The notes below the pieces were generated by a model. It had not been told where the DNA came from. It saw only the letters and a program-made list of their open reading frames with translations, and ran no database searches. Source: Folioceros fuciformis (lineage: Eukaryota). Taken from it: 50,616 bases of DNA. Position 1 is the first letter of the stretch; each line of letters starts with the position of its first letter. The position numbers were made by a program, and so were the translations under genes. Shown here in pieces: positions 5,950-32,300 of the stretch. Location of the stretch: positions 65,102 through 115,717 of the forward strand of contig JBNGIO010005794.1 of the NCBI GenBank assembly GCA_049999805.1, given 5' to 3'.

Positions 5950-7339
5950 TTTTGGATTGAAGCTATAGAAGATAGCGCTTATAGGTTTATGAAATTGTTC
6001 CCACGTCCTGTCAATGATTACCAAAATCTCAGTTGTCTTCTCATGCCCTAGAACCTAAGATAAGTCGAACACCTCTTTGCGTGCTGCCATGGTTGGATAG
6101 ATTTGCCCCATGACCTAACCTACCCCATCAACAAGCCTCAATAACTGTACATGGGCAACAAATCTAGTAGTTGCAGGCTTCAAGAGCTCTATAGTTTAAT
6201 GCGTTTGAAACATAGCCAAGGGTGCATGATGGGTAGTGATGAACTGAACCACTTGTTGAGCTCGTTGAATGATGGGGTGTATCCAATTGATGCTACTCAT
6301 TGCTTCCAGGAGTAAGTCGAGGATGTGAGTTGAGCAAGGTGTCCAAGCAATGCCAAGATATTATGCTTCAATTATCTATCCAGCGCGTTTACAATTTTGC
6401 TGTTGAGTTTGTAGCCACATTCTTACGGCCCACCTCATCAATTGCTTGCCGAAACAGGTTTGCAAGGTACAAAGCCGTTTTTTCATGCCTGCATGTTCCT
6501 CCGCTTTAAGAAACCCATTCCCTTGTTGCGAAGCCACTAACACATTCACCAATGGCTTGTTTTCTTTGTCACTCCAACTATCGCTCAAGATTGAGCAACC
6601 AATGTCCAAGAGGCATTTTCCGTCTTCTCTTCGACAATGGCCTTTTCCTCATCTAATAGCGTAGTTTGAAAAGCATTGAAGTTTGGGGGCTTATATGAGT
6701 TATCTATGTTGGTGATTGCACTAACCATGACACTGAAGAAGGGAGACAATGCAAGGTTGAATGATAATCCATGTTCATAAAAGCACCTCGCTACAGCCAC
6801 ATCTACTAGCTTTCTTTGTGGTAGCTTCCATGCCTTCTCCACTGTGGTTTGTTGAGAACTCGAAGTGCCATATTTATGTGTTGATGCAACGCATGAAGAT
6901 ATCACCTTAAAAGCTTTTCTTTCATGATACTTGGCACTGTGGAGGTAGACTCCCACTCTAAGATGACGTCTAGCCCTTGTGCTAGTTGCTTGGAAAGACC
7001 AAGCACAAAATTTGCATATGACTTTCTTTGCTCCAGTTGCGCGAACTTCCAAGATTTGGAAGTGCTCCCACACATCTTGAGCCCGTAATCGACCCATGGT
7101 CCCTAGACAGTAAGAAGGTTTAGAGCATTGCAAGAGGAGGTGGTCAAAGACCCTTGGGAATGGGTTGTGAAAGCTTGGGTGGGAATGAGTGTACGCTAGA
7201 ACATGTTATATGGGAAAACAAAAGTTAAGGAGGACAAAAGTTAAGGGGAGGAACAGAATGAAAGTAGAGTTGGTACACAGGTACATATTATATATATATA
7301 GATACAAGCATATTTATTTATTTAAAATACAGAATCTAG
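5950..7339 (-). mobile_element. hAT-superfamily transposase remnant (BED zinc finger + DUF659-like RNase H fold), copy 1
   Basis: MGRLRAQDVWEHF...CKFC...RARRHL (BED-like), ARCFYEHGLSFN, GCSILSDSWSD..NKPLVNVLV, DRTWEQFHKPI. Multiple frameshifts and stops. Confidence 0.85.
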
Positions 7340-8152: not shown

Positions 8153-10876
8153 TCAGGGCTTGACATTGCTCTTCTCTACAACAGAGAAGCTGTGCACCAG
8201 GCCGTCCACATCCGTCCACCAGCTTTGGCCTGGCTGCTTCCATGCTTCAATTCTTCTTCTTCGCGCCTGCAACTCCTGTGCCTGCTCCCACATTTGGCTG
8301 CTGGTGTAAATGTTGGACATCAACACGTACGCCGCGGCATCTTTCCTGTCCAGCTTCACCGCCTCGTCGAAGGCTTGGCGCCCAATCGCCACGTTTCTCC
8401 ACTTCTGACAAGAGCCCAGTAGGGTGTGCCAAACTGCAACATCAGGTTGTCGAGGCATGGTCCTCGCTAAGGCCAGTGCCTCTTCCACTTGCCCTGCTCG
8501 GCCCAGAAGGTCCACCATGCACGTGTAGTGGTCTGTGCTTGGAGTAATGCCATACTGCTTGCTCATACCCTCGAAGTATTCTCGCCCCTTGTCCACCAGA
8601 CCAGTGTGACTACAAACTGTTAGTACGCTGAGGAACGTGACGCCGTCTGGCTGCATGCCATGCTCTCTCATTCTGTGAACCAGCTCGAACACCTCCTTAC
8701 TGTCGCCTTGACGGGTGTACCCGGCAATCAATGCGCTCCACGTGAACACATCTCGTTTTGGCAACACATCGAAGACTTGCTGTGCATCGACCATGCTTCC
8801 CGACTTGGCATACATGTTGATCAAACTGTTGCCAACGCCGGCCTCAGCGTCAAGTCCCGCATCTTCCATCTGCGCATGAATCTGTCGTCCCACCTGCAAA
8901 GCTGCCACGCTTGCACATGCCTGAAGGAGGCACACACATGTTACGGAATCGAGCTCCACAATGCCCTGGCACTGCATGGACCTGTACAGATGGAGGGCTT
9001 CCTGGCCCATGCCTTGTTGGGAATATCCTGCTATCATGGCACTCCACGTCACCACGTTCTTCTCTACAAGTCTGTCAAACACGCCCCTGGCATGCACTAG
9101 GCTGCCACACTTTGCATACATGTTCACCAGACTGCTGCCCACAACTACGTCAGCTTGCAGTCCTTGTTCTCTGATTTGTGCATGAAGCTGCATTCCCTTC
9201 TCCAAAGCTGGGCTGCCCAGACTTGCACATGCCTGCAGGAGGCACACAAATGTCACAGAGCCAGGAGCCACGATGCCTTCTTCTTGCATGGCCCTGTAAA
9301 GGAGAAGGGCCTCCCAGCCCATACCCTGCTGGGAATATCCCGCAATCATAGCATTCCAAGTCACCACACTCTTCTGTCCCACTCCATCAAACACGCGCTG
9401 AGCATCCTCCAAGCTGCCGCACTTTGCATACATGTTTACCAAGCTGTTGGCCACGAACCCATCACACTCAAGCCCTCGGTCTCTAATCTGCGCATGAAGC
9501 TGCTTCCCCGTCTCCAAAGCTTTCTTGCCGACACCTGCACATGCCTGCAAGACGGACACAAAAGTCACAGCATCAGGTGCGGCCATGCTGTCCTCCTGCA
9601 GAGCCCTGAAAAGAACAAGGGCTTCCTGCCCTATGCCCTGCTGGGCATATCCTGCTAGTATAGCATTCCATGTTATCACGTTCTTGTGAGCCAGGCCATC
9701 AAACACACTCCGGGCATTCCACACATCTCCACACTTTGCATACATGTTTACCAAACTGCTGCCTACAAACACATCCTCCGAGAGCCCTTGTGCCCTAATT
9801 TGAGCATGAAGCCGCTTTCCATCGTCCAAAGCAGGGGGGCCCAGACTTCCACATGCCTGCAGGAGGCACACAAACGTGACAGCATCAGCTGCAACGATAC
9901 CTTCCTCTTGCATGTCCCTGTACAAGCCAAGGGCTCTCTGCCCCATCCCCTGCTGGGAATATCCGGCTATCATGCAACTCCAAGTTACCACGCTTTTCCG
10001 CCCCAGACGGTCGAACACTCTTTGAGCAGCGTCCAAGCTGCCACACTTGGCATACATGTCCACCAAGCAGCTTCCAACGAACAGATCACGCTCAACGCCA
10101 GCACCCAACACATCAGCATGCACCTCCTGCCCCGACTTCAAGTCTGCTGCCCTCGCACAAGCCTGAAGAGCTGCTACAAACACATGCCCATCCGGCTTCA
10201 CACTTGTCCTGCGCATCCTGCGATACAGCTCCACAGCCTGCCTGTCTTGTCCATGCTTGACATGAGCAGAGATCATAGCAGACCATGTAAAGGCATCCGG
10301 TTTCACAACCCTTGCGAACACATCCATAGCTTCTTCTAACCTGCCATGAGAAGCATACATTCGCAGAATGTGATTACATAAGAACGTGCCCGACTCATAC
10401 CCTTTCTTTACGCTCAGACCATGAACACGGCGGCCTAGACGCAGATCCTTCTTAGCCACACACTCTTTGAGCACCCTGTAAAACACGGATTCCGAGATTG
10501 GAGAGTCTCTGTGCACCAGAACTTCCAGGGCGTCCACGGCCTCAACGAGCTGCCCCTGCCGGCACAGTTGGCTAACGGTCTCAGCCGACAGCCATCTTTC
10601 GTATCCTGCATCTCTGCCATGGCCAACATCATGCCCCACGCTCCAATTGGACGGAGACGCAGCATGCCCATCAAGGGCAGCCAGTTGTGCATCCATCCAT
10701 CCAACCGGCTGGCAGAGACTGTTCAGGGCTCTCTTGCCTATGGCTCCAACAGAACATGGAGTGCAGAAGCAAATGATGCCAGACGAGCCCGTCTCCAGCC
10801 ATCCACCTTGCTGCACGGACTGGCTTGCGTGGGAAGGTGGCGTTGCTCGAGGCTTCGTTGCTTGCCAAACCTGCAT
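8153..10876 (-). CDS. PLS-class PPR RNA-editing specificity factor with E1/E2 and a truncated DYW:WW-type C-terminus (E+-like, no HxE/CxxC)
   Basis: Intronless 907-aa ORF from ATG 10876. About 21 P-L-S motifs, P2-L2-S2, E1 (VAVWHTLLGSC) and E2 (AAAYVLMSNIY), then KQPGQSWWTDVDGLVHSFSVV and a stop. Confidence 0.92.
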   Translation of the reverse strand: MQVWQATKPRATPPSHASQSVQQGGWLETGSSGIICFCTPCSVGAIGKRALNSLCQPVGWMDAQLAALDGHAASPSNWSVGHDVGHGRDAGYERWLSAETVSQLCRQGQLVEAVDALEVLVHRDSPISESVFYRVLKECVAKKDLRLGRRVHGLSVKKGYESGTFLCNHILRMYASHGRLEEAMDVFARVVKPDAFTWSAMISAHVKHGQDRQAVELYRRMRRTSVKPDGHVFVAALQACARAADLKSGQEVHADVLGAGVERDLFVGSCLVDMYAKCGSLDAAQRVFDRLGRKSVVTWSCMIAGYSQQGMGQRALGLYRDMQEEGIVAADAVTFVCLLQACGSLGPPALDDGKRLHAQIRAQGLSEDVFVGSSLVNMYAKCGDVWNARSVFDGLAHKNVITWNAILAGYAQQGIGQEALVLFRALQEDSMAAPDAVTFVSVLQACAGVGKKALETGKQLHAQIRDRGLECDGFVANSLVNMYAKCGSLEDAQRVFDGVGQKSVVTWNAMIAGYSQQGMGWEALLLYRAMQEEGIVAPGSVTFVCLLQACASLGSPALEKGMQLHAQIREQGLQADVVVGSSLVNMYAKCGSLVHARGVFDRLVEKNVVTWSAMIAGYSQQGMGQEALHLYRSMQCQGIVELDSVTCVCLLQACASVAALQVGRQIHAQMEDAGLDAEAGVGNSLINMYAKSGSMVDAQQVFDVLPKRDVFTWSALIAGYTRQGDSKEVFELVHRMREHGMQPDGVTFLSVLTVCSHTGLVDKGREYFEGMSKQYGITPSTDHYTCMVDLLGRAGQVEEALALARTMPRQPDVAVWHTLLGSCQKWRNVAIGRQAFDEAVKLDRKDAAAYVLMSNIYTSSQMWEQAQELQARRRRIEAWKQPGQSWWTDVDGLVHSFSVVEKSNVKP

Positions 10877-11305
10877 TCTTTCACCGCATTTGAAAGGGAG
10901 CTTTCTCTCTGGAATGCCTGTTTTCTCTCAGCATTGCTGTGCCCAGAAAATTACTCAACTCAGCGTAGACTCCTCGGACGCCTGTTTGCTCCTGATAATT
11001 GGGTGAGCTATGAAAACTGTCCCAGCAACTAAAAATGTGCCCCACTCACTAGTGTATTGTGAGCTGAAGGCAGCTCGAACACGATGCGAGGAATACAGAA
11101 TTTTCCAGCCAATTTGCCTTCAAAAAACGGGGAATCGTTGTCCATGGATTCCACAAACAGCTGAAGCATGTAAGAAGAGTTCAGTCCCTTGGGACATCGG
11201 CACTAGATGCTGAGGGCGATCTTACGCTTTGTAGAAAGTGTTTGTGACAGTAAGGCAGGGGCCTGAGACTCGTTTTCAATGAGGGACATCCAATCCCTGC
11301 TTTGA

Positions 11306-11459
11306 CTGGTCTGAGCGTGAAGAAGGAATGAGTCGGGCATGTGCTTGTGAGGTCCCAGTCTGGGAATGTACGCTTCTCTAGGAACATACAGTATGTCACA
11401 AGAAGCCATGGACGTGTTTGCAGGGGTTGTGAAACCAGACGCCTTTACATGGGCTGCTC
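11306..11459 (+). pseudogene. Inverted, degenerate fragment of the N-terminal PPR motifs of the neighbouring PPR gene
   Basis: + strand encodes GLSVKK..ESG..MYASLG..QEAMDVFAGVVKPDAFTWAA, matching GLSVKKGYESG..MYASHG..EEAMDVFARVVKPDAFTWSA of the 8153-10876 gene. Confidence 0.75.
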
Positions 11460-11699
11460 TGAGTCGGTAAGAGTCGGGCACAACCACACGGGCTTCATTG
11501 ACCCTCGTCCACTGCCTGATGGGAGTTCGAAGTGGCTTTCTAGCAGAGCTTGACAAATTCTGCCCACTGAAAGCATTTCGATGCCGGTGGGCTTCAAGAG
11601 GCTCTAACAGGGAGAGCCAATCTCGTTGCTTGGTTGAGACCTTGACAGAAGTGCTTGCTCACTGAGCAGGGTCTAGACGCGAGCACTTGTGGTCTCCCC

Positions 11700-14600
11700 C
11701 CTACCCGCAACATCCTCTCTCTTTTCACCTACCAGAAATCTATGTACCTGCATGTTCACCTCAATGCTCGCCATGGTGGGTTTTCAGTTAGCTCCGGCTG
11801 CCTTTCTCAGTGTTTCAATCATGTCCACAGTGGCCCACCTGCCTGGATCTGTGCAGGCATTTGCTGATCCATGAGCACATATGGGGCTGCCTCCTAGGGC
11901 TCTCAGCCTTACAATGATTTCCAGACACCACAACGACCTCTCTAAATCCCCGTGACTTCTGCAGGCATTCAACAACGTCGTCTGTCCCACAATGTGACTT
12001 TGGCTCTCACATGACAATAGCTTCTTTAAGTGGCCTGCACGCCCAAGAAGATCAATCATGTGCAATTGTAATGTTGTCGGTAGGTCTGATGCCATGCAGT
12101 TCAGCCATGGAATCAAACAGATTGCGACCCTTGTGGAACAGTCCCTCATGACTGCATGCTGCTAGAAGGCAAGTAAAAGTAGCGTAATCAGGCTGAATAC
12201 CGGCAACTAGCATCTCATCAAAACAAGCTAGGGCTCGGTGACCATCGTCGTTAGCACCATACCCAGCTATCAGCGCATTCCATGTCACCACATCCTTTGT
12301 GGCCAGGCTGTCGAACACCCGGCGTGCAGCTTCCGGTTTGCCACATTTTGCATACATGTCCACCAGGGAGTTGCCCAACACTACATTATCCAGCAGTCCT
12401 CTTTCAACAATCTGTGAGTGCAGCCGGCTGCCCTTCTGTAAGGCACCGGTGCTCCCACAGGCTTTCAGAAGGCAAGGCAAAAGTAACATGGCTAGCCAAA
12501 AATCAGGCCCTTTTGTTCCATTTGTCCATACGAACAAGTGCCTCTTGGCCAAGTCCTTGCTGTGCATACCCAGCTATCAGGGCATTCCACATCACTACAT
12601 CCTTTGTCACCAAGCTGTCAAAAACCTGGCGTGCAACTTCCAATTCACCACATTTAGCATACATGTCCACCAGGCCGTTGCCCAACACTACATTATCTAG
12701 CAGTCTTTGTTTGACAATCTCTGAGTGCAGCTGCCTGCCCTTCTGTAAAGCACCAGTGCCTGCACGGGCCTTTAAAAGGCAAGCACATGTGACAGTCAGC
12801 CAAAACGACTACTTGTTGCTCCATTTGTTCATACAGAACAAGTGCCTCTTGGCCGCGTCCATGTTGTGCATACCCAGATATCAAGGTATTCCATGTCAGC
12901 ACATCCTTTGTGTTTATGCTGTCAAAAATCTTGAGTGCGTCTTCCAGTTCACCACATTTTGCATACATATCCACCAGGCAGTTGCCCACCACAACGTTAT
13001 CCAGCAGTCCTCGTTCAACAATCTGTGAGTGCAGCTGCTTGCCCTTTGTAAGGCACCAGTGCTTGCACAAGCCTTCAGAAGACGAGCAAAAGTCAGATGG
13101 TCGGCCAAAGTCTGGCCCTCCATCTCCATTCGCGCATACACAGCAAGCGCCTCATCTCCAAGCCCTTTCTGGGAATACCCAGTTATCAGGGCATTCCATG
13201 TCACCACATTCTTTGTGTTCAGGCTATCAAAAACCTGGCGCGCACCTTCTAATTCACCACATTTTGCATACATGTCCACTAGGCAGGTTCCCACCGTAAT
13301 GTTATCCAGCAGTCCTCTTTCCACAATCGGCGATTGCAGCTGGCCGCCCTTCTGTAAGGCACTCGTACTTGCACAGGCCTTCAGAATGCACGCAAAGGTA
13401 ACATGATTAGCCAAAATCAAGGCCTCCTGCTCCAATTGTCCATAAACAGCAAGTGCCTCTTGACCGAGTCCTTGCTGTGCATACCCAAAATATCAGGGCA
13501 TTCCCTGTCACCACATCCTTTGTGGCTAAGCTGTCAAAAACCTGGCGTGCATCTTCCAGTTCACCACATTTTGCATACATGTCCACTAGGCAGTTGCCCA
13601 AAACTCCATTCTTCTGCAGTCCTCTCTTGGCAATCTGCAAATGAAGCTGCCGGCCTTTCTGTAAGGCACCAGTGCTTGCACAGGCCTTCAGAAGGCAAGC
13701 AAACGTAACACGGTCAGCTAAAATCAAGCCCTCCTGCTCCATTTGTCCATACAGGACAAGGACCTCATGTGCAAGTCCTCGTTCGGCATACCCAGCTATC
13801 AGGGCATTCCATGTCACCACATCCTTTGTGGGCATGCTGTCAAAAACATGGAGTGCATCTTTCAGATTCCCACATTTTGCATACATATCCACCAGGCAGT
13901 TGCCAACAAACAAGTTAGCAGGCAGGCCACTGTGCAAGACATCAGCGTGCACTTTTTCTGCCAGATTCCAAGTCAGTGGCAAATGCACAAGCTTCCAGGG
14001 CAGCTACAAAGATATGACTATTAGCATTCACTCCTGACCTACGCATCTCGTGGTACAGTTGTATGGCCTCCATGGGTTTCCCACGTTTAGCATGTGCAGA
14101 GATGACGGAACCCCACATGATCGCATGTGGTTTGCCTACCCTGGTGAACACATCCATGGCCTCCTCTAGCCTACCTCCACCCGCATACATGGGCAAGAGA
14201 TGGTTCCCCAAGCATGCGTCTGACTCGTATCCAAGTTTGATACTAAGATCATGAACTCGTCGCCCTCTAACCAAATCCCTTTTAGCTGTACAAAGTTTCA
14301 GCACAGCGACAAACAGAGAAATAGCAGAGTCTTCCTGCGCTAGAGATTCCAGGGCTTCAACGGCCTCAGAAAGCTCCTGCTGACATAACGTGCTCACGGC
14401 TACAGCTGTAACGACAGCCATTTCTGATCCCGCACGCCTGCCAGGTTCAGGCTTACTCGGAGAGCTGGACTCGGAAGCAGAGGCACCATTACCCATTTGC
14501 ATATCCAAGGAAACAAGCTGCTCATCAACCCAAGCTGGCTTCAGCATGCTGTTCAACCGGACCTCGCTGGACCCTTTATGCCGGAAGTCAGGCGAACGGG

Positions 14601-14886
14601 AGCTCTTCTTATCTCGTCGGTTATCCCACCACATGGTAGGGTCCAGAAAGAATCGTTGCCACAAGTGCTCCAGCTCCTGGCAACGACCATGACCGGCGAC
14701 CCCGTCCCCACCCACAAATTTTCTCGGAACTGATGGTGCTGGGCTCCTTGCACACCTGCATCTGGACTCTCTGTTTGCCAGGAATCGACTGCCTAAGATG
14801 AGGTGAGCCGGAGTTTCTGGCATAAGCCTTGTACAGGCACCAATTTGTTGGGTCGACAACGGGTCCGGTTGCCATACTGTGGACAT
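11700..14886 (-). pseudogene. PLS-PPR DYW:KP-type pseudogene with N-terminal PDF motif (paralog of 15275-18202)
   Basis: PLS motifs are broken over several ORFs (13942-14886, 13407-13988, 12914-13435, 12693-13070, 12503-12688, 12052-12567, 11784-12149). C-terminus AAGAN*KPTMASIEV..VHRFLVGEKRED, truncated before HAE. Confidence 0.9.
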
Positions 14887-15274
14887 CCTTCAGGGACCGC
14901 TGTCGGGAGAAGATTTTAACTTTCCACAGGACATAGCAGGACATCCAGGCACGCCTTTTAGTCACATCATCTAAGTGCTGGCCATCTCGGGTGAACCCGA
15001 ACCCGGAGAACATCGTGAATACAGAAGCATGCGGGTGATGACGAAGCAAGGCAACGCATCTGACACACGCACATGAACCGTATGCACAAACAATTGGGTT
15101 TACCTTGCATTTCTTCCCCGCAACCACATAAGATTTTCGCCCGGTTTAACTCGTGCCCTACGACAGGATCGAAGACCGGGCCCGGCCAGGACGGAAATGA
15201 GCATACATACCATGAATGGATGACAGACACGGGGTGGTCACGAGCACAGAGCAAATGGTCATGGACATCATGTC

Positions 15275-18202
15275 TCAAGGTCGACCATTACAACTGCAAG
15301 CACCAGCTGCGAATCGATGCACACGGTATCCATCCCTTACAACGATGTCTCTCTTTTCAACCCTCGACATGATTTCCGTGGAACTGTGGCAGTCACTGCA
15401 CATGCGTAGATTCTTGGTTACCACCAAAGGTGTGCCACTGGGAGTGTTCAAAAGACCAAAAGCAAGGGCTAGCTTCTCAGCATGCCCACAAAGCGCATCT
15501 TCCTTTTCCTTCTCAGACAGTGGCTTCAACACCAACTGTGTGTGTGGTGTGTGGCCCCCTTCCTGCTTCAGACGTGCGTTCGTGCTCTCTGCCTTGCGCA
15601 CAATGTCATCTCTCTTTTCTCCCACTACAAATGTATGTATCTGATTCTTCACCTCAATGCCCGCCACTGCAGGTTTCTTGTTAGCTCCTGCTACCATTCT
15701 CTGTGTTTCAATCCTGTCTACATCGGCCCACCTGCCTGCATCTGCATAGGCATTGGCCATGAGCACATAAGCGGATGCACATTGAGGCTCCAGTCTAACA
15801 AGACCCTCAAAACACCGAGACGCCCTCTCTATATCTCCATGACTTTTGCAGGCATTCAGCAAAGATGTCAACCCCACAACATTACTTCGGCTCTCACATG
15901 ATCGTAACATGTTTTCTGCCTCATCTAAAAGCCCTGCACGCCCAAGAAGATCTACCATGCAATTGTAGTGCTCAACAGTAGGCCTGACGCCATGCTGTTC
16001 CGCCATGGAATCGAAGTGCCTGCGACCCTCATTCACCAGTCCCGCGTGACTGCATGCTACTAGAAGACACGTAAAAGTAGCCTCGTCAGGCTGAACACCA
16101 GCAACTAACATCTCCTCAAAACAAGCTAGTGCTTTGTGTCCTTCATCGCAAGCACCACAGCCAGCTATGAGGGCCGTCCATGTTACGCCATTCTTCGAGG
16201 GCAAGCTGTCAAAAACCCTGCGTGCATATTCCAGTTCGCCACACTTTGCATACATGTCCACCAGTGAGTTCCCTACCAGAACGTTATCTAGCAGTCCTCT
16301 TTCCACAATTTGTGAGTGCAGCTGCCTACCCTTCAGTAAGGCACCAGCGCTTGCACAGGCCTTCAACAGGCAAGCAAAAGTAACATGGTTACCCACAATC
16401 AGGCCCTCCTGCTCCATTGACTCATACAGGACAAGAGCCTCTTGACCGAGCGCATGATTTGCATACCCAGCTATCAGGGAGGTCCATGACACCACATCCT
16501 TTTTCGCCAACCCGTCAAAGATGATGCGTGCATCTTCTAGTTTGCCACACTTTGCATACATGTCCACCAGGCAGTTGGCCACCACTATGTTGCCTAGCTG
16601 TCCTTTTTCCACAATCTGTGAGTGCAGTTCCCTGCCCTTCGACAACGCACCAGTAATTCCGCAAGCTTTCAGAAGGCAAGCAAAAGTAACATGGTCAGGC
16701 ACAATCAGGCCCTCACGCTCCATTTGTGCGTACAGGACGAGCGCATCCTGACCCAGGCCTCGGTTGGCATATCCAGCTATCAGGGCATTCCATGTTACCA
16801 CATCCTTTGTGGGCAAGCTGTGAAAAACGCTGCGTGCAGCGTCTAGTTCTCCACATTTTGCGTACATGTCCACCAGGCAGTTGCACACCAGCATGTTACT
16901 TTGATGTCCTCTTTCCACAATCTGTGAGTGCAGCTGCCTTCCCTTCTGTAATGCACCAGCGCTTGCACAAGCCTTCAGGAGGCAAGCAAAAGTAATATGG
17001 TTGCTCACAATCATGCCTTCTTGCTCCATTCGTCCATGCAGAACAAGAGCCTCTTGGCTGAGCCCTTGCTGTGCATACCCAGCAATCAGTGCATTCCATG
17101 TCACCACATTTTTTGCTGTCAAACCCTCAAAAAGACGTCGTGCATCCTCCAGTTCACCACACTTTGCATACATGTCAACCAGGCAACTGCCCACAAACAA
17201 GTTTGTAGGAATCCCACTGCGCAACACATCAAAGTGGACCTTTTTGCCAGTGTCCAAGTCCTCAGCAAATGCACAAGCCTGCAGTGCTGCTACAAAGACG
17301 TGAGCATCCGGCTGTACACCGGAGATACGCATTTCATGGTACAGTCGGATAGCCTCATAAGGTTTCCCATGTTTAGCATGGGCAGATATGATGGAAAACC
17401 ACATGAAAGCATCCGGTTTTCCCACCCTGGTGAACACATCCATGGCCTCTTGCAGCCTACCTGCACCTGCATACATCCGCAAGATATGATTCCCCAAGAA
17501 TGTACTTGACTCGTACCCAAGCTTGACAGCGAGATCATGAACTCGTCGCCCGGCCACCAGATCCCTCTTAGCTACACACAGCTTTAACACAGTATAAAAG
17601 AGAGAGTGAGAGACAGGACAGTCGTTCTGCGCCAGAGATTCCAGGGCTCCAACAGCCTCCGTGAGCTTCCCCTGCTGACATAACGTGCTGACCGTTGCAG
17701 CCGTCCCTACTCCTCCCATTTTTGATCCTGCACGCCTGCCAGGCTCAGACCCACTCGGAGAGCTCGAATTGGAAGGAGAGACCCCATGGCGCATCTGCAT
17801 ATCCAAAGAAACGAGCTGCTCATCCACCCAACCTGGCTTGAACATGTTGTTCAACCAGAGGACCTCCCCGGACCCCTTGCGGCGGAAGTCAGGCCAGTGA
17901 GCACTCTTCTTACCTCTCCTGTTATCCCACCACATGGCAGGGTCCAGAAAGAATTGTTGCCACAACAGCTCCTGCTCCTGGACCAGGGCCTGGTCCTGCC
18001 GACCACTGTCGCTGGGAAATCGTGTCACATTCATCCATTCTCTCGAAACACCTGGGTCCCTCGCACTGCTGCACCTGCGGCCTTGGTTGTTTGCCAGCGA
18101 CTGACTGCTTGAGCTAAGGTGAGCGGGAGCTCCTCGAAGAATTCCTGTACACTCAGCAAATTGTTGGGTCCACAATGGATCCGGTTGCCATATTGTGGCC
18201 AT
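15275..18202 (-). CDS. Intact PLS-PPR-E1-E2-DYW:KP (GRP-ending) putative U-to-C organellar RNA-editing factor with N-terminal OSB-like PDF motif
   Basis: Intronless 975-aa ORF from ATG 18202. About 18 PLS motifs; KKPAVAGIEV box, LCGHAEKLALAFG, KNLRMCSDCH, HRFAAGACSCNGRP*. N-terminal WQQFFLDPAMWWDNRRGKKSAHWPDFRRKGSGEVLWL..PGWV. Confidence 0.95.
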   Translation of the reverse strand: MATIWQPDPLWTQQFAECTGILRGAPAHLSSSSQSLANNQGRRCSSARDPGVSREWMNVTRFPSDSGRQDQALVQEQELLWQQFFLDPAMWWDNRRGKKSAHWPDFRRKGSGEVLWLNNMFKPGWVDEQLVSLDMQMRHGVSPSNSSSPSGSEPGRRAGSKMGGVGTAATVSTLCQQGKLTEAVGALESLAQNDCPVSHSLFYTVLKLCVAKRDLVAGRRVHDLAVKLGYESSTFLGNHILRMYAGAGRLQEAMDVFTRVGKPDAFMWFSIISAHAKHGKPYEAIRLYHEMRISGVQPDAHVFVAALQACAFAEDLDTGKKVHFDVLRSGIPTNLFVGSCLVDMYAKCGELEDARRLFEGLTAKNVVTWNALIAGYAQQGLSQEALVLHGRMEQEGMIVSNHITFACLLKACASAGALQKGRQLHSQIVERGHQSNMLVCNCLVDMYAKCGELDAARSVFHSLPTKDVVTWNALIAGYANRGLGQDALVLYAQMEREGLIVPDHVTFACLLKACGITGALSKGRELHSQIVEKGQLGNIVVANCLVDMYAKCGKLEDARIIFDGLAKKDVVSWTSLIAGYANHALGQEALVLYESMEQEGLIVGNHVTFACLLKACASAGALLKGRQLHSQIVERGLLDNVLVGNSLVDMYAKCGELEYARRVFDSLPSKNGVTWTALIAGCGACDEGHKALACFEEMLVAGVQPDEATFTCLLVACSHAGLVNEGRRHFDSMAEQHGVRPTVEHYNCMVDLLGRAGLLDEAENMLRSCESRSNVVGLTSLLNACKSHGDIERASRCFEGLVRLEPQCASAYVLMANAYADAGRWADVDRIETQRMVAGANKKPAVAGIEVKNQIHTFVVGEKRDDIVRKAESTNARLKQEGGHTPHTQLVLKPLSEKEKEDALCGHAEKLALAFGLLNTPSGTPLVVTKNLRMCSDCHSSTEIMSRVEKRDIVVRDGYRVHRFAAGACSCNGRP

Positions 18203-18589
18203 CTTACAGGCAAATCTCTCGGACTGTGAGAAGCACAACGAATCGCGCAGACCGTTGTAGAATGCCTAGTTAGTGTGCATGACCATACCAACTCGGCCAG
18301 CATGGAGTCGGTCTCTCGGTTGACCGATGGCAAGGACATGAACTGCCTGTAATTTTGCAACAGCACGTCAAACCGCAGAGGATGCTTGATTATGGCCCAA
18401 AAATCAGTACCGGCCCTGCATGAAGCGAAGACTCACACGGCATTGATCTTTGCAGGACTTTACTTTGTGTATTATCTGAGTGACGATACATCCTATTTAC
18501 ATCATCTTCACGGTGATACATAGCGTATGCACAATGTCCGTGAACATGGATCATCACGCAATCGCGCTGTAGACAAAAACACTTCAGAT

Positions 18590-21120
18590 TTAGCTGGAAG
18601 TCCTACACTTTTCTCGCGGTGGACCCTCACAACTGCAAGAACCAGCTGCAAAGCGATGCACACGGTATCCATCCCTTACAACGATGTCTCTGTTCTCCAC
18701 CCTTGACATGATCTCGGTGGAACTATGGCAGTCACTGCACATTCGTACATTCTTGGTTACCACTAGGGGTGTCCCACTTGGAGTGTTCAAGAGACGAAAC
18801 GCCAGAGCTAGTTTCTCAGCATGCCCACAAAGCGCATCTTCCTTTTCCAGCTCAGAAAGTGGCTTCAATACCAAGTTAGTGTGTGGTACATGGCCCCCTT
18901 CCTGCTTAAGACGTGCATTCGTGCTCTCTACCTTCAGTGCAATATCGTTTCTCTTTCTCCCACCAGAAATGTATGTACCTGATTGCTCACCTAAAAACCT
19001 GCCATTGCAGGCTTCTTGTTAGCCCCTGCTACCATTCTCTGTTTTTCAATCCTGCCTACATCGCTCCCATCTACCAGCATCTGCATACACGTTGGCCATG
19101 AGGATGTATGCGGACGAACACTGAGGCTCTAGTCCAACGAGACTTTGGAAACACCGGGTGGCCCTCTCTATATCCCCGTGACTTTTCCAGGCATTCAGCA
19201 AGGACGTCAAGCCCAGAACATTGCTCTGGCTGTCACATGATAATAGCATGTCATCTGCCTCATCCAAATGGCCTGCACGGCCAAGGAGGTCAACCATGCG
19301 ATTGTAATGCTCAATAGCAGGTTTGACGCCATGTTGTTCAACCATGGCATCAAACAGCTGGCGACCTTCATCCACCAGTCCTTCATGACTGCACGCTCCT
19401 AAAAGGCAAGTGAAAGTGGTACTATTTGGCTGAATACCTGTGGCTAACATCTCCTCAAACCAAGCTAGTGCTTTATGACCCTCATCACAACTTCCACACC
19501 CAGCTATCAAGGCATTCCATGTCACCACATCCTTTGTGACCAAGCTGTCAAAAACCCCACGTGCATCTTCCAATTTGCCAAATTTGGCATACATGTCCAC
19601 CAGACCGTTGCCCACAAGTCCGTTATCTAACTGGCCTCCGTCCACTATCTGTAAGTGTAGCTGCCTGCCCTTCTGCAAGGCGCCAGCACTTGCACAAGCC
19701 TTCAGAAGGCGAGCAAAGGTAACATGGTCAGCCACAAGTAGGCCCTCCTGTTCCATTCTACCATGAAGAATAGGCGCCTCTTTGCCAAGGTCGTGGTTAG
19801 CATACCCAGCTATTAGGGCTGTCCATGTCACAACAGTTTTTTGTGGCCAAGCAGTCAAAAACCCTGCGTGCATCTTCCAGTTCGCCACATTTTGCATACA
19901 TGCATACTAGGCGATTGCCCACCCGTACGTTGTCTAGCTGTCCTGCTTCCACAATCTGTGTGCGCACCTGCCTGCCCTTCTTAATAGCGCCACAGCTTGC
20001 ACAGGCCTTCAGAAGGCAAGCAAACGTAACATGGTTTCCTGCAATCAGGCCCTCCTGCTTCACATCTTCGTAAACAGCCAGCGCCTCTTGGCCAAGCCCA
20101 TGATTTGTATACGCAGAAATCAGGGAATTCCATGTCACCACATCTTTTGTGGCCAAACTGTCAAAAACCCTACGTGCATCTTCCAATTCCCCACATTTTG
20201 CATACATGTCCACGAGGCAGTTGCCAACAAACAAGTTAGGAACGATGCCACTGTGCAGCACATCACAGTGCACTTGCCGGCCAGACTCCAAGCCCGCAGC
20301 CAATGCACAGGCTTGAAGGGCTGCAAGGTAGACGTGAGCATTGGCCTTGACGCCTGCACCGCGCATCTCAGAGCACAGCTTTATAGCCTCAATAGGTTGC
20401 CCATGTTTAGCATGGGCGGATACTATGGAAAATCACAAGAATCCGGCTTTCCCACCTTGGTGAACACATCCATGGCCTCCTGCAGCCTACCTCGACGAAC
20501 ATACATCCGCAAGATATGATTCCCCAAGTACGTACTTGACTCATACCCAAGTTTCACAGTGAGATCTTGAACCCGTCGTCCCAAAACCAGATCCTTCTTA
20601 TGTGCACATAGTTTCAGCACAGTGTAAAAGAGAGACCGGGAAATAGGACAGTCCTTCTGCGCCAGAGATTCCAGGGCTCCAACAGCCTCACTAAGCTTCC
20701 CCTGCTCACATAGCGTGCTCACGGTTACAGCTGTTGCACGCCCCTTGCCGTTCCTGCACTCCCCTTGCCGTTCCTGCAAGCCTGCCAGGCTCAAGTTTAT
20801 CCGGAGAGCTCAACGTGGAAAGAGACGCACCAAGACCCATCTGCAAATCCATAGAATCGAGCTGCTCATCCACCCACCCTGGCTTGATTTGTCGCCACGA
20901 CTGCTGCTGCTGCTGGTGCCCCTGCTCCTGAGGTCCACCGTTGCAGGAAACGCCATTCCCAGTCATCCATTCTCCGCGAACTGCTGATGGGTTCCTAACA
21001 ATGCTGCACCTGGAGACATTGTTGTTTTCTCGAACCTGGCCTCCAGGAGTCAGCTCAATCGGAGGTCCTCGCAGAATCCCTGTGCACTCACCAATTTGTT
21101 GAGTCCCTCCAGAGGCCATG
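18590..21120 (-). pseudogene. PLS-PPR DYW:KP pseudogene (paralog), PDF core deleted
   Basis: Frameshifted ORFs 20706-21149, 20423-20794, 19797-20366, 19046-19897 and 18590-18874. DYW:KP end HAEKLALAF..CSDCH..CSCEGPPREK with altered terminus. Confidence 0.9.
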
Positions 21121-22214
21121 GGAGAGCAGAATGTCCAGCAACTTGGCATACTACACCAACTTCAGCGAGGTCATTCCAGGCGGAATAGAGCACGTCAACG
21201 ACACCATCAAAACATGAATACTACACCCCTTCGCGCAATGGCAAGTTGATAACCCGTTCTGATATTTGCTGACCACCACGCTGACCGATAGTACTCTTAT
21301 CAAAGCTTTGTTACAAAAGATTTGGAGGATAGGCCATAGTAGCCTACTATCGGTCATTTTGGGGGATAGGCAAAAATCTGTTTGCTTGCCCTAGTGTCTG
21401 AGAATGGATTCGCACGGACATTGAAAGTGAACCAACTCGGTGAGTCAGATGCGCAAACTCACTTCTGCCTCTTGCCATTTCAGCTGCGCTTCGCATCATG
21501 ACGTCTAATAACACCCCACTGCATAGACCCATCTGCCTCTGCACCCGCCGCGTACAGTCATGGGCACGGGCCCATGCCCTCTTCTTTGGCTCGTGTTTGC
21601 CCTTCCACTACCGCTACTGCCCCTTCAGCGTTTTTAGGGTACTGTGCCTGCCGGGCGTCTGCCTGCAAGCCCCAAACAGACTGTTCGCTACCCGCCGGCC
21701 ACATTTCACTGTCTAGGGGATATGCTGAGGTCGACCACCCGGTTGTTTATAGTCTAAACTGGGGCTACAGGCTGCACCCGTGGCCGATTTCAAGCCTCGT
21801 CAGAAATGCTGGAATCGGCCGTGCGCCCACCTGCGACCGGACATGCCGAGATGCTACAATCGGTTTCCCAAAGTCGGCCTCACCGGATGGCTACCCCTCT
21901 ACTGCCCCCTCCACAACCGCGCAGTAGGTTAATTGCTCACCACGTCCATATTCCATAGGCCACACTCTCACGAGATTTTGCAAAGTGACTGATCGATTAA
22001 CCAAGCAAGTACAATTAAGAGTCGCATGATGGTGCAAGACGAACCGTCGTGACTGATTGGGTGCAAAACCCTAACCAATTAAACAAACATAAATTAATGT
22101 ATCTCAAATAATTCCATTCTAAAATGATGAGTGCGTAATCTACTTTAACACTCCCACTCGCACGAAAAGCATTAAAGTTTCTAAACATCTTCATTGTCTT
22201 GTAGACACAGTTAC

Positions 22215-29300: not shown

Positions 29301-32300
29301 TGAATTTCAGGCCTTCTGTCATTCTGCCTGGCAACGGGTCCCAATTCAATGGTTCCTGCAGATTACAGCGCCGTACGTCTAGTGTGTCAAACACACTCTG
29401 AACTGGCAAAACATGATTGAAAGATCTGTCGCCTATACCTCCTGACTCCACGCTTGATTCCACAACATGGTTTGCCCGTTCCCCATCACGTTTTAAACTC
29501 CCGCCCCCGTTTTCGGGCCCGTGGAACCGTGGCTGGTCACTAGTATCTTCAGTCTTCTCTCTGAGAGTCTCCTCTGTCACAACTGCTTGTGGCTTGCCAG
29601 TGGCTGTCACAGACACGAATTTCATAATTTAGGTTGGCCCAGACGTCTGTGTAAACTCATCAGTGGATCACATCAATCCAAACAAAGTTAAAACCACATA
29701 GAACAGGTATCAGGTCCTTACAGTCGAAATGCGACAGTGCCAGAGTCACGGTTAAGTTGAGGAACAATGTATATCCAACGAGCACAGCAACGCCTATCCA
29801 GTACCAAGATCCGTTCATTGGCATCCCTCGTGCACCAAGAATTCTTCTATACAGAGGTACTCCGGGAGCATCAGGGCTTTGCTGGAGGGACAGTCCAGAC
29901 AACATGTCAGCTCTCACACAATGCAGGACTCTGCACCAAGCTACGAACATTCTTCCCAAGCCAAGCTTAATCTTCATTTGGGAAATTAGAGAGGCCCTAT
30001 AGCAGAGCAAGCCCCTGGTTGAAGGGATAGTCCAGAGGGGGGGGAATGGCATGTCGGTTCTCACAGAAAGGAATGTACCACATACCATTTGCCATCTAGG
30101 TGCAAGAAATTCGTTGACAGAGATAGCATTCTGAGCGTACGTCAAAGGAGACACCCAATATCCCCAGACCCACCAAGGGTGCATGCTATCTGCAAGTAAC
30201 ATAACAAATCGTGTCAAGCTTGTCATGTTGTCTGCTCGCGTCCAAGTGCGTGCGTTTTGCATAGACTGTGAAGCTGAAATAATGACAGAGGAGAAAGGTT
30301 ACTTTTTGCTAAGATGAATCCACCGAGAAGGAGGAGCAGACGAATTACAAAGGATCCGACAGTGTATGCAATAACCATGGATCTCCCAGCAGCACCTATT
30401 GTCCGAAAAATCCCAACTGACACCTGATGCGTGAGGAAAAGCAGTATCGTAAATTGAGTAAACCTGGAAAAAACAGAGAATTATCAGTACAAACTGCCTC
30501 TACTCCCTAGTAGGTGAAATGTCTTCTTCAATATGCTTGGGGTCCGGTACCTGATGGCGTCAGGGGCAAATCCAACAGTGTAATACACTATAGAACTCCA
30601 AACAACAGACTCCACAGCTGAGTAGGGAATTCTGAGAATCCAGACTGGTAATGAGAACGCCCAGGCTGGATAAAACAAGTTGTCTCTCTGCTTGTAGAAC
30701 ACTTGAAGGCGCATTACGGTGAGCGACATCTCAGAAAATCCATTGAAAACCATGTGCAACAAGGAATAGAATAGACAATTCATGTACAGGTTCCCGTCGC
30801 TCTCATTCGTGGGACTCAAATCTGTCCTCACGAATAAAGTGGCTGTCAAGAATGCCACTAAACCAACCTGCCACATACAAGACAGGATAGAAGAAAAACG
30901 TCCGTTTAGTTTTGTCTTCGAATCATGAATAATCCATTGACGGTTAACATCGCTGCAATGACGTTCCCTGGCAACTGGAAGCAATAGAATGTACCTGGAC
31001 AGTGCGGAAAACATACAGAGAACTGTTGCGCTTCATTAACAACAGCTCTCGTTCCAAGCAGGCTTTGAAAAGCTTCCACTCTGACAAGGCGTACTTTGTC
31101 TTGGCCATTGCCAGGGGATGACCTTTAGAAACATCCAGTGGAGTCGCAAGGTTTCTCTTCAACTCTTTCCGCAACTCGGACTCATGAAATGCAGCTGCCA
31201 TTGCAGACACCGGTGTATATTTGTAAGGCCTGCTCTTCTCTGCCCAGTACTGCTCCTGGTCCTTCTTCGAAATAACCTGACATCACAGGGTCCCCAGTCA
31301 CAGGAAGTTGAGTGAGCTGAGATTCCATTCACAGTCAAGATTCAAAACATGAAGAAACGTTTGGAATATTTCACTTCTTGAAGAAAGTCGGCCACGCCTT
31401 TGCGGGGTGGAAGCTTGAACCCCAATGACTCAAAAAACTCGACGACTTTCTCTCGAGGCCCCAGGTACACCAGATGACCATCAGCTAGGAGCAGAATGTC
31501 ATCGAAGAGGTCAAAAGTTTCCGGAGGTGGCTGGAGGAGATCCATCAGCACGGTTGCATCATGCAGGTGAACGAAGTTACGGGTGCATTTCACAATTTGG
31601 AAGGTTGTGGAGCTGTCCAACCCTGTGGATATCTGGTCCATAAACAAAGTATTCCTGGGTCCAACGATCATCTCACCTGCAAGAGAGCAGCACTGGTCAG
31701 ATACTCCATGCAACCAGCTAAAGCAGGATAGTAAATACGAGTGCTACGTTTTCCCAGACTCGGCATATTTGTGCGAGGCAGAAACCGCAGCAAAGCAAAC
31801 CTGTCGTCACACGTCTCTTTTGGCCTCCTGAAATCCCCCTGAGCATCTGACTTCCCACAATCGTGTCTGCACAGTGTTCAAGACCGAGAATCTTGATAAT
31901 GTAGTCCGTACAAACACTGTGCTTTTCGCCCTCCACAGCTGAGGCCTGATGCACACACAGTACACCATGCCAAGAGGTGTAATGAAACCGTAGGGGAACA
32001 ACGCCCGACATCGAGTAAGTGAGAGGACTTAACTAGTCATGGCATTGCTACCTTCATATAGGCGTCAATGCTTGGGCGAGGACGAATTTGCTGTTCCTTC
32101 TCCCTCCTAGCGAGCTCAGCCATCATATCTGCAACAATTCGGCTCAATCTTAGACAGCGTGAGATAGATACAGTGTGCCTTACCGATGACCAACGAAGGG
32201 ACAAGACCCCACCGTCCACAAACCTTGTTTATAGCCTACACCTTGACACCGGGCAGCAAAGTCAAGAGTCTCTCGTACAGTAAGCTCGCCAATGTGATTT

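Follow-up and report, generated by a model that had tools for sequence, protein, structure and literature searches.

An OSB-type PDF domain N-terminal of the PPR tract in a predicted U-to-C editing factor from Folioceros fuciformis

Introduction

PLS-class PPR proteins are usually drawn as a transit peptide followed by a PPR tract and E/DYW domains. Other domains can accompany the PPRs: two surveys list RRM, LAGLIDADG, SMR, NYN, CBS, and SAP domains, along with RRM, MORF, and OZ fusions, and the PDF motif is absent from the domains that they list (PMC9459714, PMC13386178).

The PDF motif is described from the OSB proteins. It is a stretch of about 50 residues that contains Pro-Asp-Phe together with WWDNR and LW...P.WV (PMC6963530, PMC4166229). 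In OSB proteins it lies C-terminal, after a central OB/SSB-like domain. The PDF motif is reported to be responsible or sufficient for the binding of single-stranded DNA by OSB proteins (PMC6963530, PMC6451138, PMC4166229). Recombinant OSB1 and OSB2 prefer single-stranded DNA over double-stranded DNA or RNA (PMC4166229, citing Zaegel 2006), and AtOSB2 has been reported to be a tetramer (PMC6963530).

The GRP subtype of the DYW:KP domain was described from hornworts and, in designer form, is active in U-to-C editing (PMC9478123). In this subtype, the PG box is changed to KP; the active site reads HAE instead of HSE; the last residues are GRP; and the Lys partner of the terminal Asp in DYW:PG domains gives way to a Glu (PMC9478123). 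Further marks are Met92 and a Lys88 within a domain of 132 or 133 amino acids (PMC11845758, PMC9478123). The GRP-based designer proteins KP2 and KP3 carry out U-to-C editing in both E. coli and human cells, and the designer construct is described as an N-terminal tag, a PLS domain, and C-terminal domains, with no PDF listed (PMC9478123).

Here we analyze a stretch of 50,616 nucleotides of DNA from Folioceros fuciformis (the window). We conclude, with little room for doubt, that gene C in this window is intact and nuclear and encodes an organelle PPR editing factor of the PLS class (DYW:KP, GRP subtype), that it has one genuine OSB-homologous PDF between an extension of about 66 residues and the PPR tract, and that it is a member of a large and old PDF-PLS-PPR family (mosses, lycophytes, ferns, and the hornwort-type lineage) that is essentially monophyletic by its PDF.

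Results

Gene C lies on the minus strand at 15275..18202 and encodes 975 amino acids plus a stop codon, as determined from the list of open reading frames, the translation, and Pfam. The order of its parts is an N-terminal extension, a single PDF, a disordered linker, a PLS-type PPR tract, an E motif, and a DYW:KP domain, and all of the coordinates that follow are on the minus strand. The N-terminal extension (residues 1-66, 18005..18202) contains, judging from its composition, a putative organelle presequence: S, R, and A abound in residues 21-50, where there are four K or R and one D or E. The initial Met and the first residues are also found in a neighboring paralog (paralog B), and 21 codons before Met1 the reading frame is closed by a stop. 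The PDF domain, delimited by phmmer, BLASTP, and its AlphaFold2 fold, covers residues 67-138 (17789..18004), and the conserved motif within it covers residues 79-130 (peptide LLWQQ...VDEQL, 17813..17968). A flexible linker rich in S, P, and G (residues 139-164, 17711..17788; from AlphaFold2 and an alignment) leads from the PDF to the first PPR helix. The PLS-type PPR tract (residues 165-787, 15842..17710) is supported by matches to the Pfam families PPR, PPR_1, PPR_2, and PPR_3 and by AlphaFold2. It is followed by the E1/E2 region (residues 788-842, 15677..15841; Pfam E_motif at residues 788-850, E = 2.9e-12) and by the 133-residue DYW:KP domain of the GRP subtype (residues 843-975, 15278..15676; Pfam DYW_deaminase at residues 883-973, E = 2.9e-32). 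Thus gene C has the features of PLS-class PPR-DYW proteins, namely a PPR tract, an E motif, and a DYW domain with HAE and CSDCH. Pfam did not find an SSB/OB domain in the 975-residue protein. Gene C shares a domain with OSB proteins yet is not an OSB, as its PDF precedes a PPR tract and an SSB/OB domain is absent.

We considered whether the fusion might be an artefact of the gene model or of the assembly. This is ruled out by the single continuous genomic reading frame: tblastn places residues 1-975 in one frame at 100%, and there is no stop between the PDF motif and the PPR and DYW part of the protein. It is also ruled out by the presence of the fusion in gene models annotated in several other species and in a transcript from Pteridium. 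Thousands of short contigs from four sequencing runs of uncertain kind cover the reading frame, including the bins over the PDF, with at least 85% likeness; their source is a large paralogous family, and the coverage is no indication of expression.

The C-terminal domain has every sequence feature of the GRP subtype, as in the hornwort GRP proteins and in KP2 and KP3 (PMC9478123, PMC11845758). KP replaces PG (KKPAVAG, residues 842-848), and the active site is HAE, at positions 65-67 of the domain. Numbered from the KP box, the K of KNLRM is Lys88 and the M is Met92, and the domain has a length of 133 amino acids. There is a Glu four residues past the His of CSDCH, and the protein ends with CSCNGRP. 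A first-pass annotation of this DNA had described the gene as intact and as DYW:KP/GRP, and both descriptions hold: gene C is a single reading frame, unlike the frameshifted paralogs B and D. From the DYW:KP features we predict that the natural gene C protein is of the U-to-C editing type. Unlike the designer proteins KP2 and KP3, it has a long PPR tract of native origin, preceded by a PDF domain (PMC9478123).

The first-pass annotation had also proposed that this editor carries an OSB-type PDF motif, at 17806-17972, and had suggested checking the motif against Pfam and OSB1-4 with HMMER. We used residues 69-136 as a phmmer query against 1.84 billion representatives. The matches to the PDF included 564 proteins at E ≤ 0.001, with 132 at E ≤ 1e-10. 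Significance reached E = 1.5e-43, for a protein with four repeats that NCBI names "protein OSB3, chloroplastic/mitochondrial-like". Using BLASTP, we compared the PDF of gene C to single PDF repeats from the OSB3-like protein and from OSB2, and found 44-48% identity (pairwise E = 1e-16 and 2e-11). Because of these phmmer and BLASTP E-values, we reject chance resemblance to the PDF of OSB proteins. Furthermore, in two of the matches without PPRs (P0010 and P0089), Pfam places an SSB fold ahead of the PDFs, as in the architecture of OSB proteins. The OSB-type assignment is thus confirmed; the location that had been given is in the right place and overshoots 17813..17968 by a few bases on each side.

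Pfam had no match over the PDF motif in any of the proteins that we scanned, so the PDF-PPR fusion goes unannotated. Foldseek did not find a similar solved structure for the PDF fold either. A word-indexed search with the 68-residue motif scored none of 8 candidates, and a search of the same kind with residues 1-170 returned P0007 alone; both outcomes reflect the limits of the word index, not absence.

Like the PDFs of OSB1-4, that of gene C spans about 50 residues and shows the core W..P..WWDNR..K....PDF.HK.....LW....P.WV, and it has Pro-Asp-Phe, WWDNR, and LW...P.WV as well as similarity to named OSB proteins. The core W, P, W, D, R, K, PDF, K, LW, P, and W are common to PPR-linked and other PDFs. 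In an alignment of 42 sequences (A1), gene C keeps all 7 invariant positions and all 11 nearly invariant positions. It has PDF-R-R-K where at least 90% of the PPR-linked PDFs have a His (PDF-K-H-K), and Arg is also seen at this position in OSB repeats.

AlphaFold2 folds the 68-residue PDF piece with high confidence (pLDDT 94.7, pTM 0.80) in the order helix-strand-strand-helix. The same fold appears in the model of a 421-residue fragment, in which PDF and PPR helices alike are modeled with confidence and pLDDT falls below 50 at residues 143-157 of the protein (84-98 of the fragment); PPR helix pairs run from fragment residue 106 onward. The AlphaFold2 outputs carry no inter-domain confidence, so the placement of the PDF relative to the PPR tract is not readable from the models. 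In an alignment of 78 PDF-PPR sequences, a 49-residue stretch of the PDF contains 19 columns with conservation of 90% or more, and there is no such column in the linker that follows, nor anywhere between fragment positions 68 and 123. From this conservation alone, we infer that the PDF is kept in the mature protein after the presequence is removed.

Many other plant proteins have the same arrangement. Among the matches listed, 97 of 274 proteins have one to three N-terminal PDFs together with a PPR tract; like OSB proteins, PPR proteins carry the PDF in tandem. The first PDF is N-terminal of the PPR tract in all 97 fusions, and all of the PDFs are in 96 of the 97. (The sole exception, P0181, has one further PDF match downstream.) Across the 97 fusions, the PPR tract usually begins 15-30 residues past the last PDF. 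The fusions come from Selaginella, Diphasiastrum complanatum, Ceratopteris richardii, Adiantum capillus-veneris, three species of Sphagnum, and Pteridium aquilinum, where the transcript reading frames include one of 1374 amino acids with three PDFs and PPRs. Many PDF-PPR proteins are named "hypothetical protein" or the like. In the matches listed, a PDF fused to PPRs is seen only in seed-free plants.

Most of the PDF-PPR proteins listed do not have a DYW domain. Among the matches listed, a DYW domain is present in 28 of the 97 fusions; 27 of these end in DYW, and one has HAE...GRP. Within the 27, 26 read HSE and one is without HxE by the pattern that we used. The only other GRP-type protein among the matches listed, P0119, has substitutions at nearly invariant positions of the PDF (P to T, W to C, and PDF to RDF). 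The first-pass annotation had treated the architecture as special to a U-to-C editor. The count of fusions by DYW subtype that it had suggested does not favor this reading: among the matches listed, DYW:KP accounts for only 1 of the 28, the other 27 are of the canonical C-to-U type, and proteins with PDF and PPRs are numerous in seed-free land plants. These counts argue that whatever the PDF does is generic to PLS-class PPR proteins, with no tie to U-to-C chemistry. For the proposed link to U-to-C editing this is a sobering result, because the PDF is not specific to DYW:KP proteins. Support for the earlier interpretation is only partial, since the fusion recurs in other proteins and is not restricted to U-to-C editors.

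We also built a tree of PDF segments. Of 127 unique PPR-linked segments, 126 fall in one clade of 133 tips (support 0.966). The PPR-linked PDFs thus form essentially one clade, which points to a single origin. This clade is separate from the PDFs of OSB proteins, and its members have a loop that is two residues longer before the final P.WV. At several positions, the preferred residues of PPR-linked PDFs differ from those of other PDFs.

The window also contains the paralogs A, B, and D of gene C. Paralog A (8153..10876, minus strand; from the translation, Pfam, and an alignment) is an open PPR-E protein of 907 amino acids without a PDF. It is 50% identical to gene C over residues 117-790 and keeps only a stretch that resembles the last helix of the PDF (GWMDAQLAALD). 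It lacks a complete DYW domain, with a stop after a PG-like box. Paralog B (about 11676..14886) is broken across multiple tblastn frames. It contains the second PDF motif of the window (14515..14667, minus strand; from the translation of the reading frame and a DNA alignment), with a match to the WWDNR-coding pattern at 14618..14631. In this motif, the nearly invariant Leu-Trp pair is one residue short owing to a 3-nt deletion, so that EVLWLN becomes EVRLN. Paralog D (18617..21149, minus strand; from reading frames, a DNA alignment, and tblastn frames -3/-2/-3) is also broken. It has a 111-nt in-frame deletion of the PDF core (equivalent to residues 84-120; junction near 20888/20889), and further on there are frameshifts. 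Frameshifts break both B and D, whereas gene C is intact. A dN/dS comparison of paralog B with gene C was dropped as B is a pseudogene.

Discussion

What might the PDF do in an editing factor? We suggest that it is a tethered, sequence-independent binder of single-stranded nucleic acid that is accessory to editing, a mechanism whose chances we put just short of even. After import, the presequence would be removed, and the PDF would stay as a small autonomous fold, joined to the N-terminal end of the PPR solenoid by about 25 residues of flexible linker. This end of the solenoid corresponds to the 5' side of the bound RNA, given the polarity of PPR proteins. There the PDF would bind single-stranded nucleic acid without sequence preference, most likely the transcript, and so might add affinity, speed the capture of the target, or keep the 5' flank unstructured. 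The work would be divided, with the PPR tract providing specificity, the DYW:KP domain providing the chemistry, and the PDF serving as an accessory module outside catalysis. Indeed, the PDF appears to be accessory to catalysis because designer KP proteins of the GRP type edit, and the PDF is not listed in the description of their construct (PMC9478123). Against this mechanism, paralog A is open and has no PDF, paralog D lost the core of its PDF, and paralog B lost a residue at Leu-Trp, so the domain is dispensable in some relatives. The substitutions in the PDF of P0119 and the Arg of gene C in place of His also speak against it. Taking identity and mechanism together, our best explanation as a whole could equally well prove right or wrong.

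The partner could instead be DNA. The PDF might bind single-stranded organellar DNA (for instance the non-template strand in transcription bubbles or R-loops, or intermediates of replication or recombination) and tether the editor to the nucleoid, so that editing would be co-transcriptional. The first-pass annotation had put forward such a tether, along with RNA unwinding and an action of the deaminase fold on DNA, as possible mechanisms. OSB proteins bind ssDNA through their PDF (PMC6963530, PMC6451138, PMC4166229), and the in vitro preference of OSB1 and OSB2 for ssDNA (PMC4166229) favors a DNA tether over RNA binding. The core residues that PPR-linked PDFs share with other PDFs are also consistent with such a tether, and the flexible linker would let the protein touch DNA and nascent RNA simultaneously. 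However, the PPR-linked PDFs are a clade of their own, with a longer loop and other preferred residues, and therefore their specificity may have shifted. Furthermore, E. coli and human cells support editing by PPR-DYW factors, the GRP-type designer KP proteins among them, outside the setting of an organellar nucleoid (PMC9478123). On balance we consider the tether to DNA unlikely. A more radical proposal, that the PDF brings the deaminase-fold DYW:KP enzyme to ssDNA so that DNA rather than RNA is modified, draws on nothing but the co-occurrence of an ssDNA-binding-type domain with a deaminase-fold domain. The PPR tract is an RNA-recognition module, the relevant literature that we consulted does not report DNA editing, most of the fusions do not have a DYW domain, and 27 of the 28 that do have the canonical ending of RNA editors. 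We think that DNA editing is extremely improbable.

Two further explanations do not involve nucleic acid. The PDF might oligomerize or recruit partners such as OSB, nucleoid, or editosome proteins, and would then be a built-in counterpart of a helper factor. The tetramer of AtOSB2 (PMC6963530) fits this, but the OSB literature, as far as it was available to us, does not ascribe oligomerization to the PDF; the complementary distribution is a correlation from limited match lists; and only a subset of PLS proteins have the PDF. This makes a protein-protein role quite improbable. Slightly less probable again is that the PDF of gene C is an inherited, decaying remnant, one that served the family's ancestor and has become neutral in the GRP lineage. 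The PDF was repeatedly lost or damaged in the tandem paralogs A, B, and D; P0119 has its substitutions at nearly invariant positions; and gene C itself has the change from His to Arg. But B and D are pseudogenes throughout, so the damage to their PDFs says little, the Arg recurs in OSB repeats, and gene C keeps every invariant and nearly invariant position of A1 in a domain that AlphaFold2 models confidently. Among all of these explanations, we prefer a single-stranded nucleic-acid binder that assists editing.

As a design, gene C resembles the RRM-PPR protein PPR4 and other RRM-PPR fusions, which also have a nucleic-acid module N-terminal of the PPRs (PMC9459714, PMC13386178). This is an analogy of design, as the PDF and the RRM differ in fold and in family. 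The PDF may also be like the MORF/RIP helpers of seed-plant editosomes, in that it might raise the RNA-binding performance of PLS-type PPRs. MORF proteins are described as restricted to seed plants and as separate polypeptides, and their fold is unrelated, whereas the PDF is fused in cis. A broader and doubtful proposal is that PDF-PLS-PPR was an ancestral editosome design of land plants. An OSB-type PDF would have been captured once and, as a built-in binder of single-stranded nucleic acid without sequence preference, would have given many editing factors of hornworts, mosses, lycophytes, and ferns an extra grip on RNA (or nucleoid DNA); the fusion would have been lost toward seed plants, which later obtained such a grip in trans from MORF. 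If this were true, then adding a PDF could improve designer PPR editors, including those for U-to-C editing. More generally, the PDF may serve as a small add-on domain in engineered C-to-U and U-to-C editors.

The PDF-PPR fusion is apparently undescribed. The first-pass annotation could not confirm a prior report, and none turned up in the searchable literature: by full-text search we found no paper that connects PPR or DYW proteins with OSB proteins or with the PDF motif or domain. One review treats both the PDF motif and pentatricopeptide proteins, but separately. What emerges is a separately folding and conserved module on dozens of editing-type factors from several seed-free lineages, including hyper-editing ones. 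It raises the question of how seed-free plants, which are described as being without MORF helpers, reach efficient capture of their sites.

The known range of the PDF is also widened, beyond OSB proteins and beyond green plants: the matches include dinoflagellate proteins with 8-9 PDF repeats.

A predicted DYW:KP editor with an OSB-type PDF domain

A single 975-codon open reading frame, which we call gene C, spans 15275..18202 on the minus strand (from the ORF list and its translation). An in-frame stop codon lies 21 codons 5' of its first methionine, and the start region is also kept in a neighboring paralog (B). Besides numerous PPR repeats, Pfam identifies an E motif (residues 788-850) and a DYW_deaminase domain (residues 883-973, E = 2.9e-32). 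By its sequence, the predicted editor is intact, as the first-pass annotation had stated.

The DYW domain of gene C is 133 residues long, numbered from the KP box. It has KP where PG would be expected, HAE at 65-67, Lys88 (within KNLRM), Met92, CSDCH, a glutamate 4 residues past the histidine of CSDCH, and a C-terminal GRP. Hornworts are described as having two DYW:KP variants, "GRP" and "DRH"; HAE is given as KP-specific, Met92 is noted for DYW:KP, and GRP proteins have a glutamate in place of the lysine that pairs with the terminal aspartate (accessible text of PMC9478123). Lys88 is reported to be required for U-to-C activity (PMC11845758), and DYW:KP is reported to be confined to hornworts, lycophytes, and ferns (PMC13386178). 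Because KP, HAE, Lys88, Met92, the glutamate, and GRP all fit these descriptions, gene C is most plausibly a DYW:KP factor of the hornwort GRP type, and thus a predicted editor. By its sequence, it belongs to the PLS-PPR-DYW family and to the DYW:KP GRP subgroup, which agrees with the KP assignment made from the sequence alone.

The first-pass annotation also placed an OSB-type PDF motif at 17806-17972. The peptide that it quoted is real and forms residues 79-130 of gene C (LLWQQFF...WVDEQL; 17813..17968, minus strand). Thus the location was correct and the bounds overshot by a few bases. Pfam has no match in the N-terminal 165 residues of gene C, nor did any Pfam match cover the PDF in any protein that we scanned (gene C and homologs).

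With phmmer, residues 69-136 matched 564 of 1.84 billion representative proteins at E ≤ 0.001; 132 of them reach E ≤ 1e-10, and 15 reach E ≤ 1e-30. Many of these have multiple matched stretches, as expected because the motif is repeated. P0010, which NCBI names "protein OSB3, chloroplastic/mitochondrial-like", matched in four stretches (E = 1.5e-43), and in several angiosperms a profile search picked up further proteins called OSB2 or OSB3. Single repeats from OSB3-like and OSB2 proteins are 44-48% identical to the PDF of gene C (pairwise BLASTP). These matches to named OSB proteins bear out the proposed identity of the motif.

Reviews and a 2026 paper on OSB proteins define the PDF as about 50 residues with a P-D-F signature, present in at least one copy C-terminal of an OB-like domain (PMC6963530 and PMC4166229 among them, as far as their available text goes), and the ssDNA binding of OSB proteins is attributed to it (PMC6963530, PMC6451138, PMC4166229, likewise). 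A Pfam SSB domain precedes the PDFs in P0010 and in another match, P0089. Gene C shares the PDF with the OSB proteins but lacks their OB/SSB domain, so by its domain content it is not an OSB protein. P0089 (363 aa, SSB plus PDF, OSB-like) also has a partial, borderline Pfam match to the RNA 2'-phosphotransferase Tpt1/KptA (26.0 bits, with the cutoff at 26, over positions 5-35 of the 177-position profile), which is probably spurious.

AlphaFold2 predicts a confident structure for a 68-residue piece containing the PDF (pLDDT 94.7 and pTM 0.80, with a 42-sequence alignment): a helix (2-18), two strands (23-25 and 38-40), a bridge (46-47), and a second helix (58-67). Foldseek with this model found no match in the PDB at E ≤ 0.001, and a sequence search of the PDB with the same piece found no related chain. 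(The best match, 9fq7_4Z, "Cytochrome c oxidase subunit 31", had a non-significant E = 0.48 over query positions 11-54 and is taken as chance.) A longer model covering 421 residues (60-480; 78 sequences; pLDDT 91.1) is confident for the PDF and the PPR helices, with residues 143-157 below pLDDT 50. In the 78-sequence alignment, 19 columns within the PDF are at least 90% conserved, as against 0 in the linker. Leaving docking aside, the models picture the PDF as a compact domain that folds by itself and is flexibly tethered to the N-terminus of the PPR solenoid.

PDF-PPR fusions beyond U-to-C editors

Of the best 150 among the 564 phmmer matches, 17 are similar to the PPR region of gene C as well (again by phmmer). 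Their named sources are Selaginella, Ceratopteris richardii, Adiantum capillus-veneris, Diphasiastrum complanatum, and Sphagnum compactum. Transcript ORFs from the fern Pteridium aquilinum match as well, including one of 1374 aa with three PDFs and then PPRs in a fused frame on one transcript contig. A profile (A3) built from 18 PPR-linked PDFs found 287 proteins at E ≤ 0.001, and most of those listed (the best 120 of 287) are Diphasiastrum PPR proteins. No PDF-PPR protein with a named seed-plant source was seen among the matches listed (the best 150 of 564 and the best 120 of 287), which does not imply that seed plants lack the fusion.

We classified 274 listed matches, with some isoforms and cluster members among them, and 97 of these have 1-3 PDFs together with a PPR tract. 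In all 97, the first PDF is N-terminal to the tract, and in 96 every PDF is; the exception, P0181, has one additional PDF match downstream. The last PDF usually ends 15-30 residues before the tract. A DYW domain is present in 28 of the 97, and 27 of these 28 end in DYW (26 with HSE, and one with no HxE found by pattern). Just one, P0119 (a Logan contig, 753 aa), has HAE...GRP. The first-pass annotation was right about the motif and the intact KP editor, and its special link between the PDF and U-to-C editors does not hold: going by these sequences, the PDF-PLS-PPR architecture is not peculiar to such editors.

P0119 is the nearest relative of gene C among the matches listed; the two are 58% identical in the C-terminal 568 residues and 50% identical in an alignment that takes in the PDF. 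Three nearly invariant residues of its PDF are substituted (P to T, W to C, and PDF to RDF), and two residues are inserted. These changes suggest relaxed constraint on the PDF in part of the GRP lineage.

For a phylogeny, we collected 573 PDF segments (494 of them unique: 127 PPR-linked and 367 other) and built a midpoint-rooted tree (FastTree, LG+gamma, 108 columns). Of the 127 PPR-linked segments, 126 group in a single clade with 133 tips in all and a support of 0.966, in a sample with a short alignment, one dominant species, and some members retrieved via the PPR-linked profile. Within that sample, the PPR-linked PDFs are essentially monophyletic and appear to be of one origin. The clade's other 7 tips, short proteins of 143-217 aa, may be incomplete sequences. 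The core W, P, W, D, R, K, P-D-F, K, L-W, P, W is common to both classes; the PPR-linked PDFs have a loop before the final P.WV that is two residues longer and are more uniform at several positions.

The PDF-PLS-PPR architecture is genuine, old, and widespread, and it appears to be undescribed, going by searchable full texts. A search of main article texts found no literature linking the PDF motif to PPR proteins. In the accessible text of a review on Physcomitrium, the accessory domains of PPR proteins are RRM, LAGLIDADG, SMR, NYN, CBS, and SAP, and the PDF is not among them (PMC9459714). Nor is it among the PPR fusions that a kingdom-wide 2026 survey of 364 genomes covers (RRM, MORF, and OZ, with MORF genes given as limited to seed plants), in whose text "PDF", "OSB", and "ssDNA" occur 0 times (PMC13386178, accessible text).

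Tandem paralogs and the rest of the window

Gene C is one of four PLS-PPR paralogs in tandem at 8153..21149, all on the minus strand, and it is the only one that remains fully intact and keeps its whole PDF. Paralog A (8153..10876, 907 aa) is open, with no full DYW domain; it has a PG-like box (KQPGQSW), a stop about 28 residues further on, and an E+-like ending. Its PDF is absent except for a stretch resembling the last helix (GWMDAQLAALD). Paralog B (about 11676..14886) is a pseudogene with several frameshifts and a damaged PDF: the site encoding WWDNR is present (14618..14631), and at the Leu-Trp pair, which is nearly invariant, a 3-nt deletion costs one residue. Paralog D (18617..21149) is a frameshifted pseudogene whose PDF core was removed by a clean in-frame deletion of 111 nt.

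The rest of the window is ordinary plant nuclear DNA. It includes exons of a PDR-type ABC transporter (ABC2_membrane and PDR_assoc, 29660..31014), an ORF of 604 aa for an FMO-like/pyridine-nucleotide oxidoreductase (45729..47543), and a BED zinc-finger ORF (6585..7097) that may be transposon-derived, all on the minus strand. Thousands of short contigs from four public runs of uncertain kind match within 15217..18258, at 85-95% identity to parts of the ORF and including bins across the PDF. They indicate a very large family of paralogs in related organisms and are not evidence of expression.

Possible roles of the PDF

These analyses show what the PDF is related to, how confidently it is predicted to fold, where it lies, and that it is conserved, recurrent, and essentially monophyletic in PPR proteins. 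PPR tracts bind RNA in parallel, with the N-terminal repeats toward the 5' side, and the DYW domain acts immediately 3' of the PPR footprint. On the role of the PDF, we tentatively favor, at a little under an even chance, that after import it would lie near the RNA on the 5' side of the footprint and bind single-stranded nucleic acid regardless of sequence. Such binding would raise affinity, speed capture, or keep the flank unfolded. The GRP-based designer proteins KP2 and KP3 perform U-to-C editing and are described as a tag, a PLS domain, and C-terminal domains, with no PDF listed (PMC9478123, accessible text). This argues that the PDF would be accessory to catalysis.

The main rival is the first-pass proposal that the PDF tethers the editor to ssDNA in the nucleoid. 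The reported preference of OSB1 and OSB2 for ssDNA over RNA (PMC4166229, available text) speaks for a tether, which we consider unlikely overall. That the PDF is instead a module for protein interactions seems quite unlikely to us. There is slightly less chance that it is a decaying remnant in the gene C lineage: the PDF has been repeatedly lost or damaged among the close relatives of gene C, and in gene C it is intact. It is very improbable that the PDF directs DNA modification.

Other proteins with PDF repeats

Proteins with many PDF repeats are found in a dinoflagellate (Effrenium voratum; P0004 and cluster members) and in a green snow alga (Sanguina aurantia, P0013). P0004 (730 aa) has 8 repeats and P0005 (719 aa) has 9. 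Gene models from Coptis chinensis (P0061, 1526 aa) and Striga hermonthica (P0042, 1063 aa) combine PDF repeats with a kinesin motor domain or with the annotation "Interactor of constitutive active ROPs". A very long protein from Kingdonia uniflora (P0003, 1160 aa) has 13 PDF stretches by phmmer and 12 on re-scanning. P0061, P0042, and P0003 may result from merged gene models or represent additional architectures with PDFs. The top match to the PPR-linked PDF profile, P0174 (ENA, 705 aa, E = 9.6e-157), has unrelated precomputed Pfam labels and is presumably a long PDF array.
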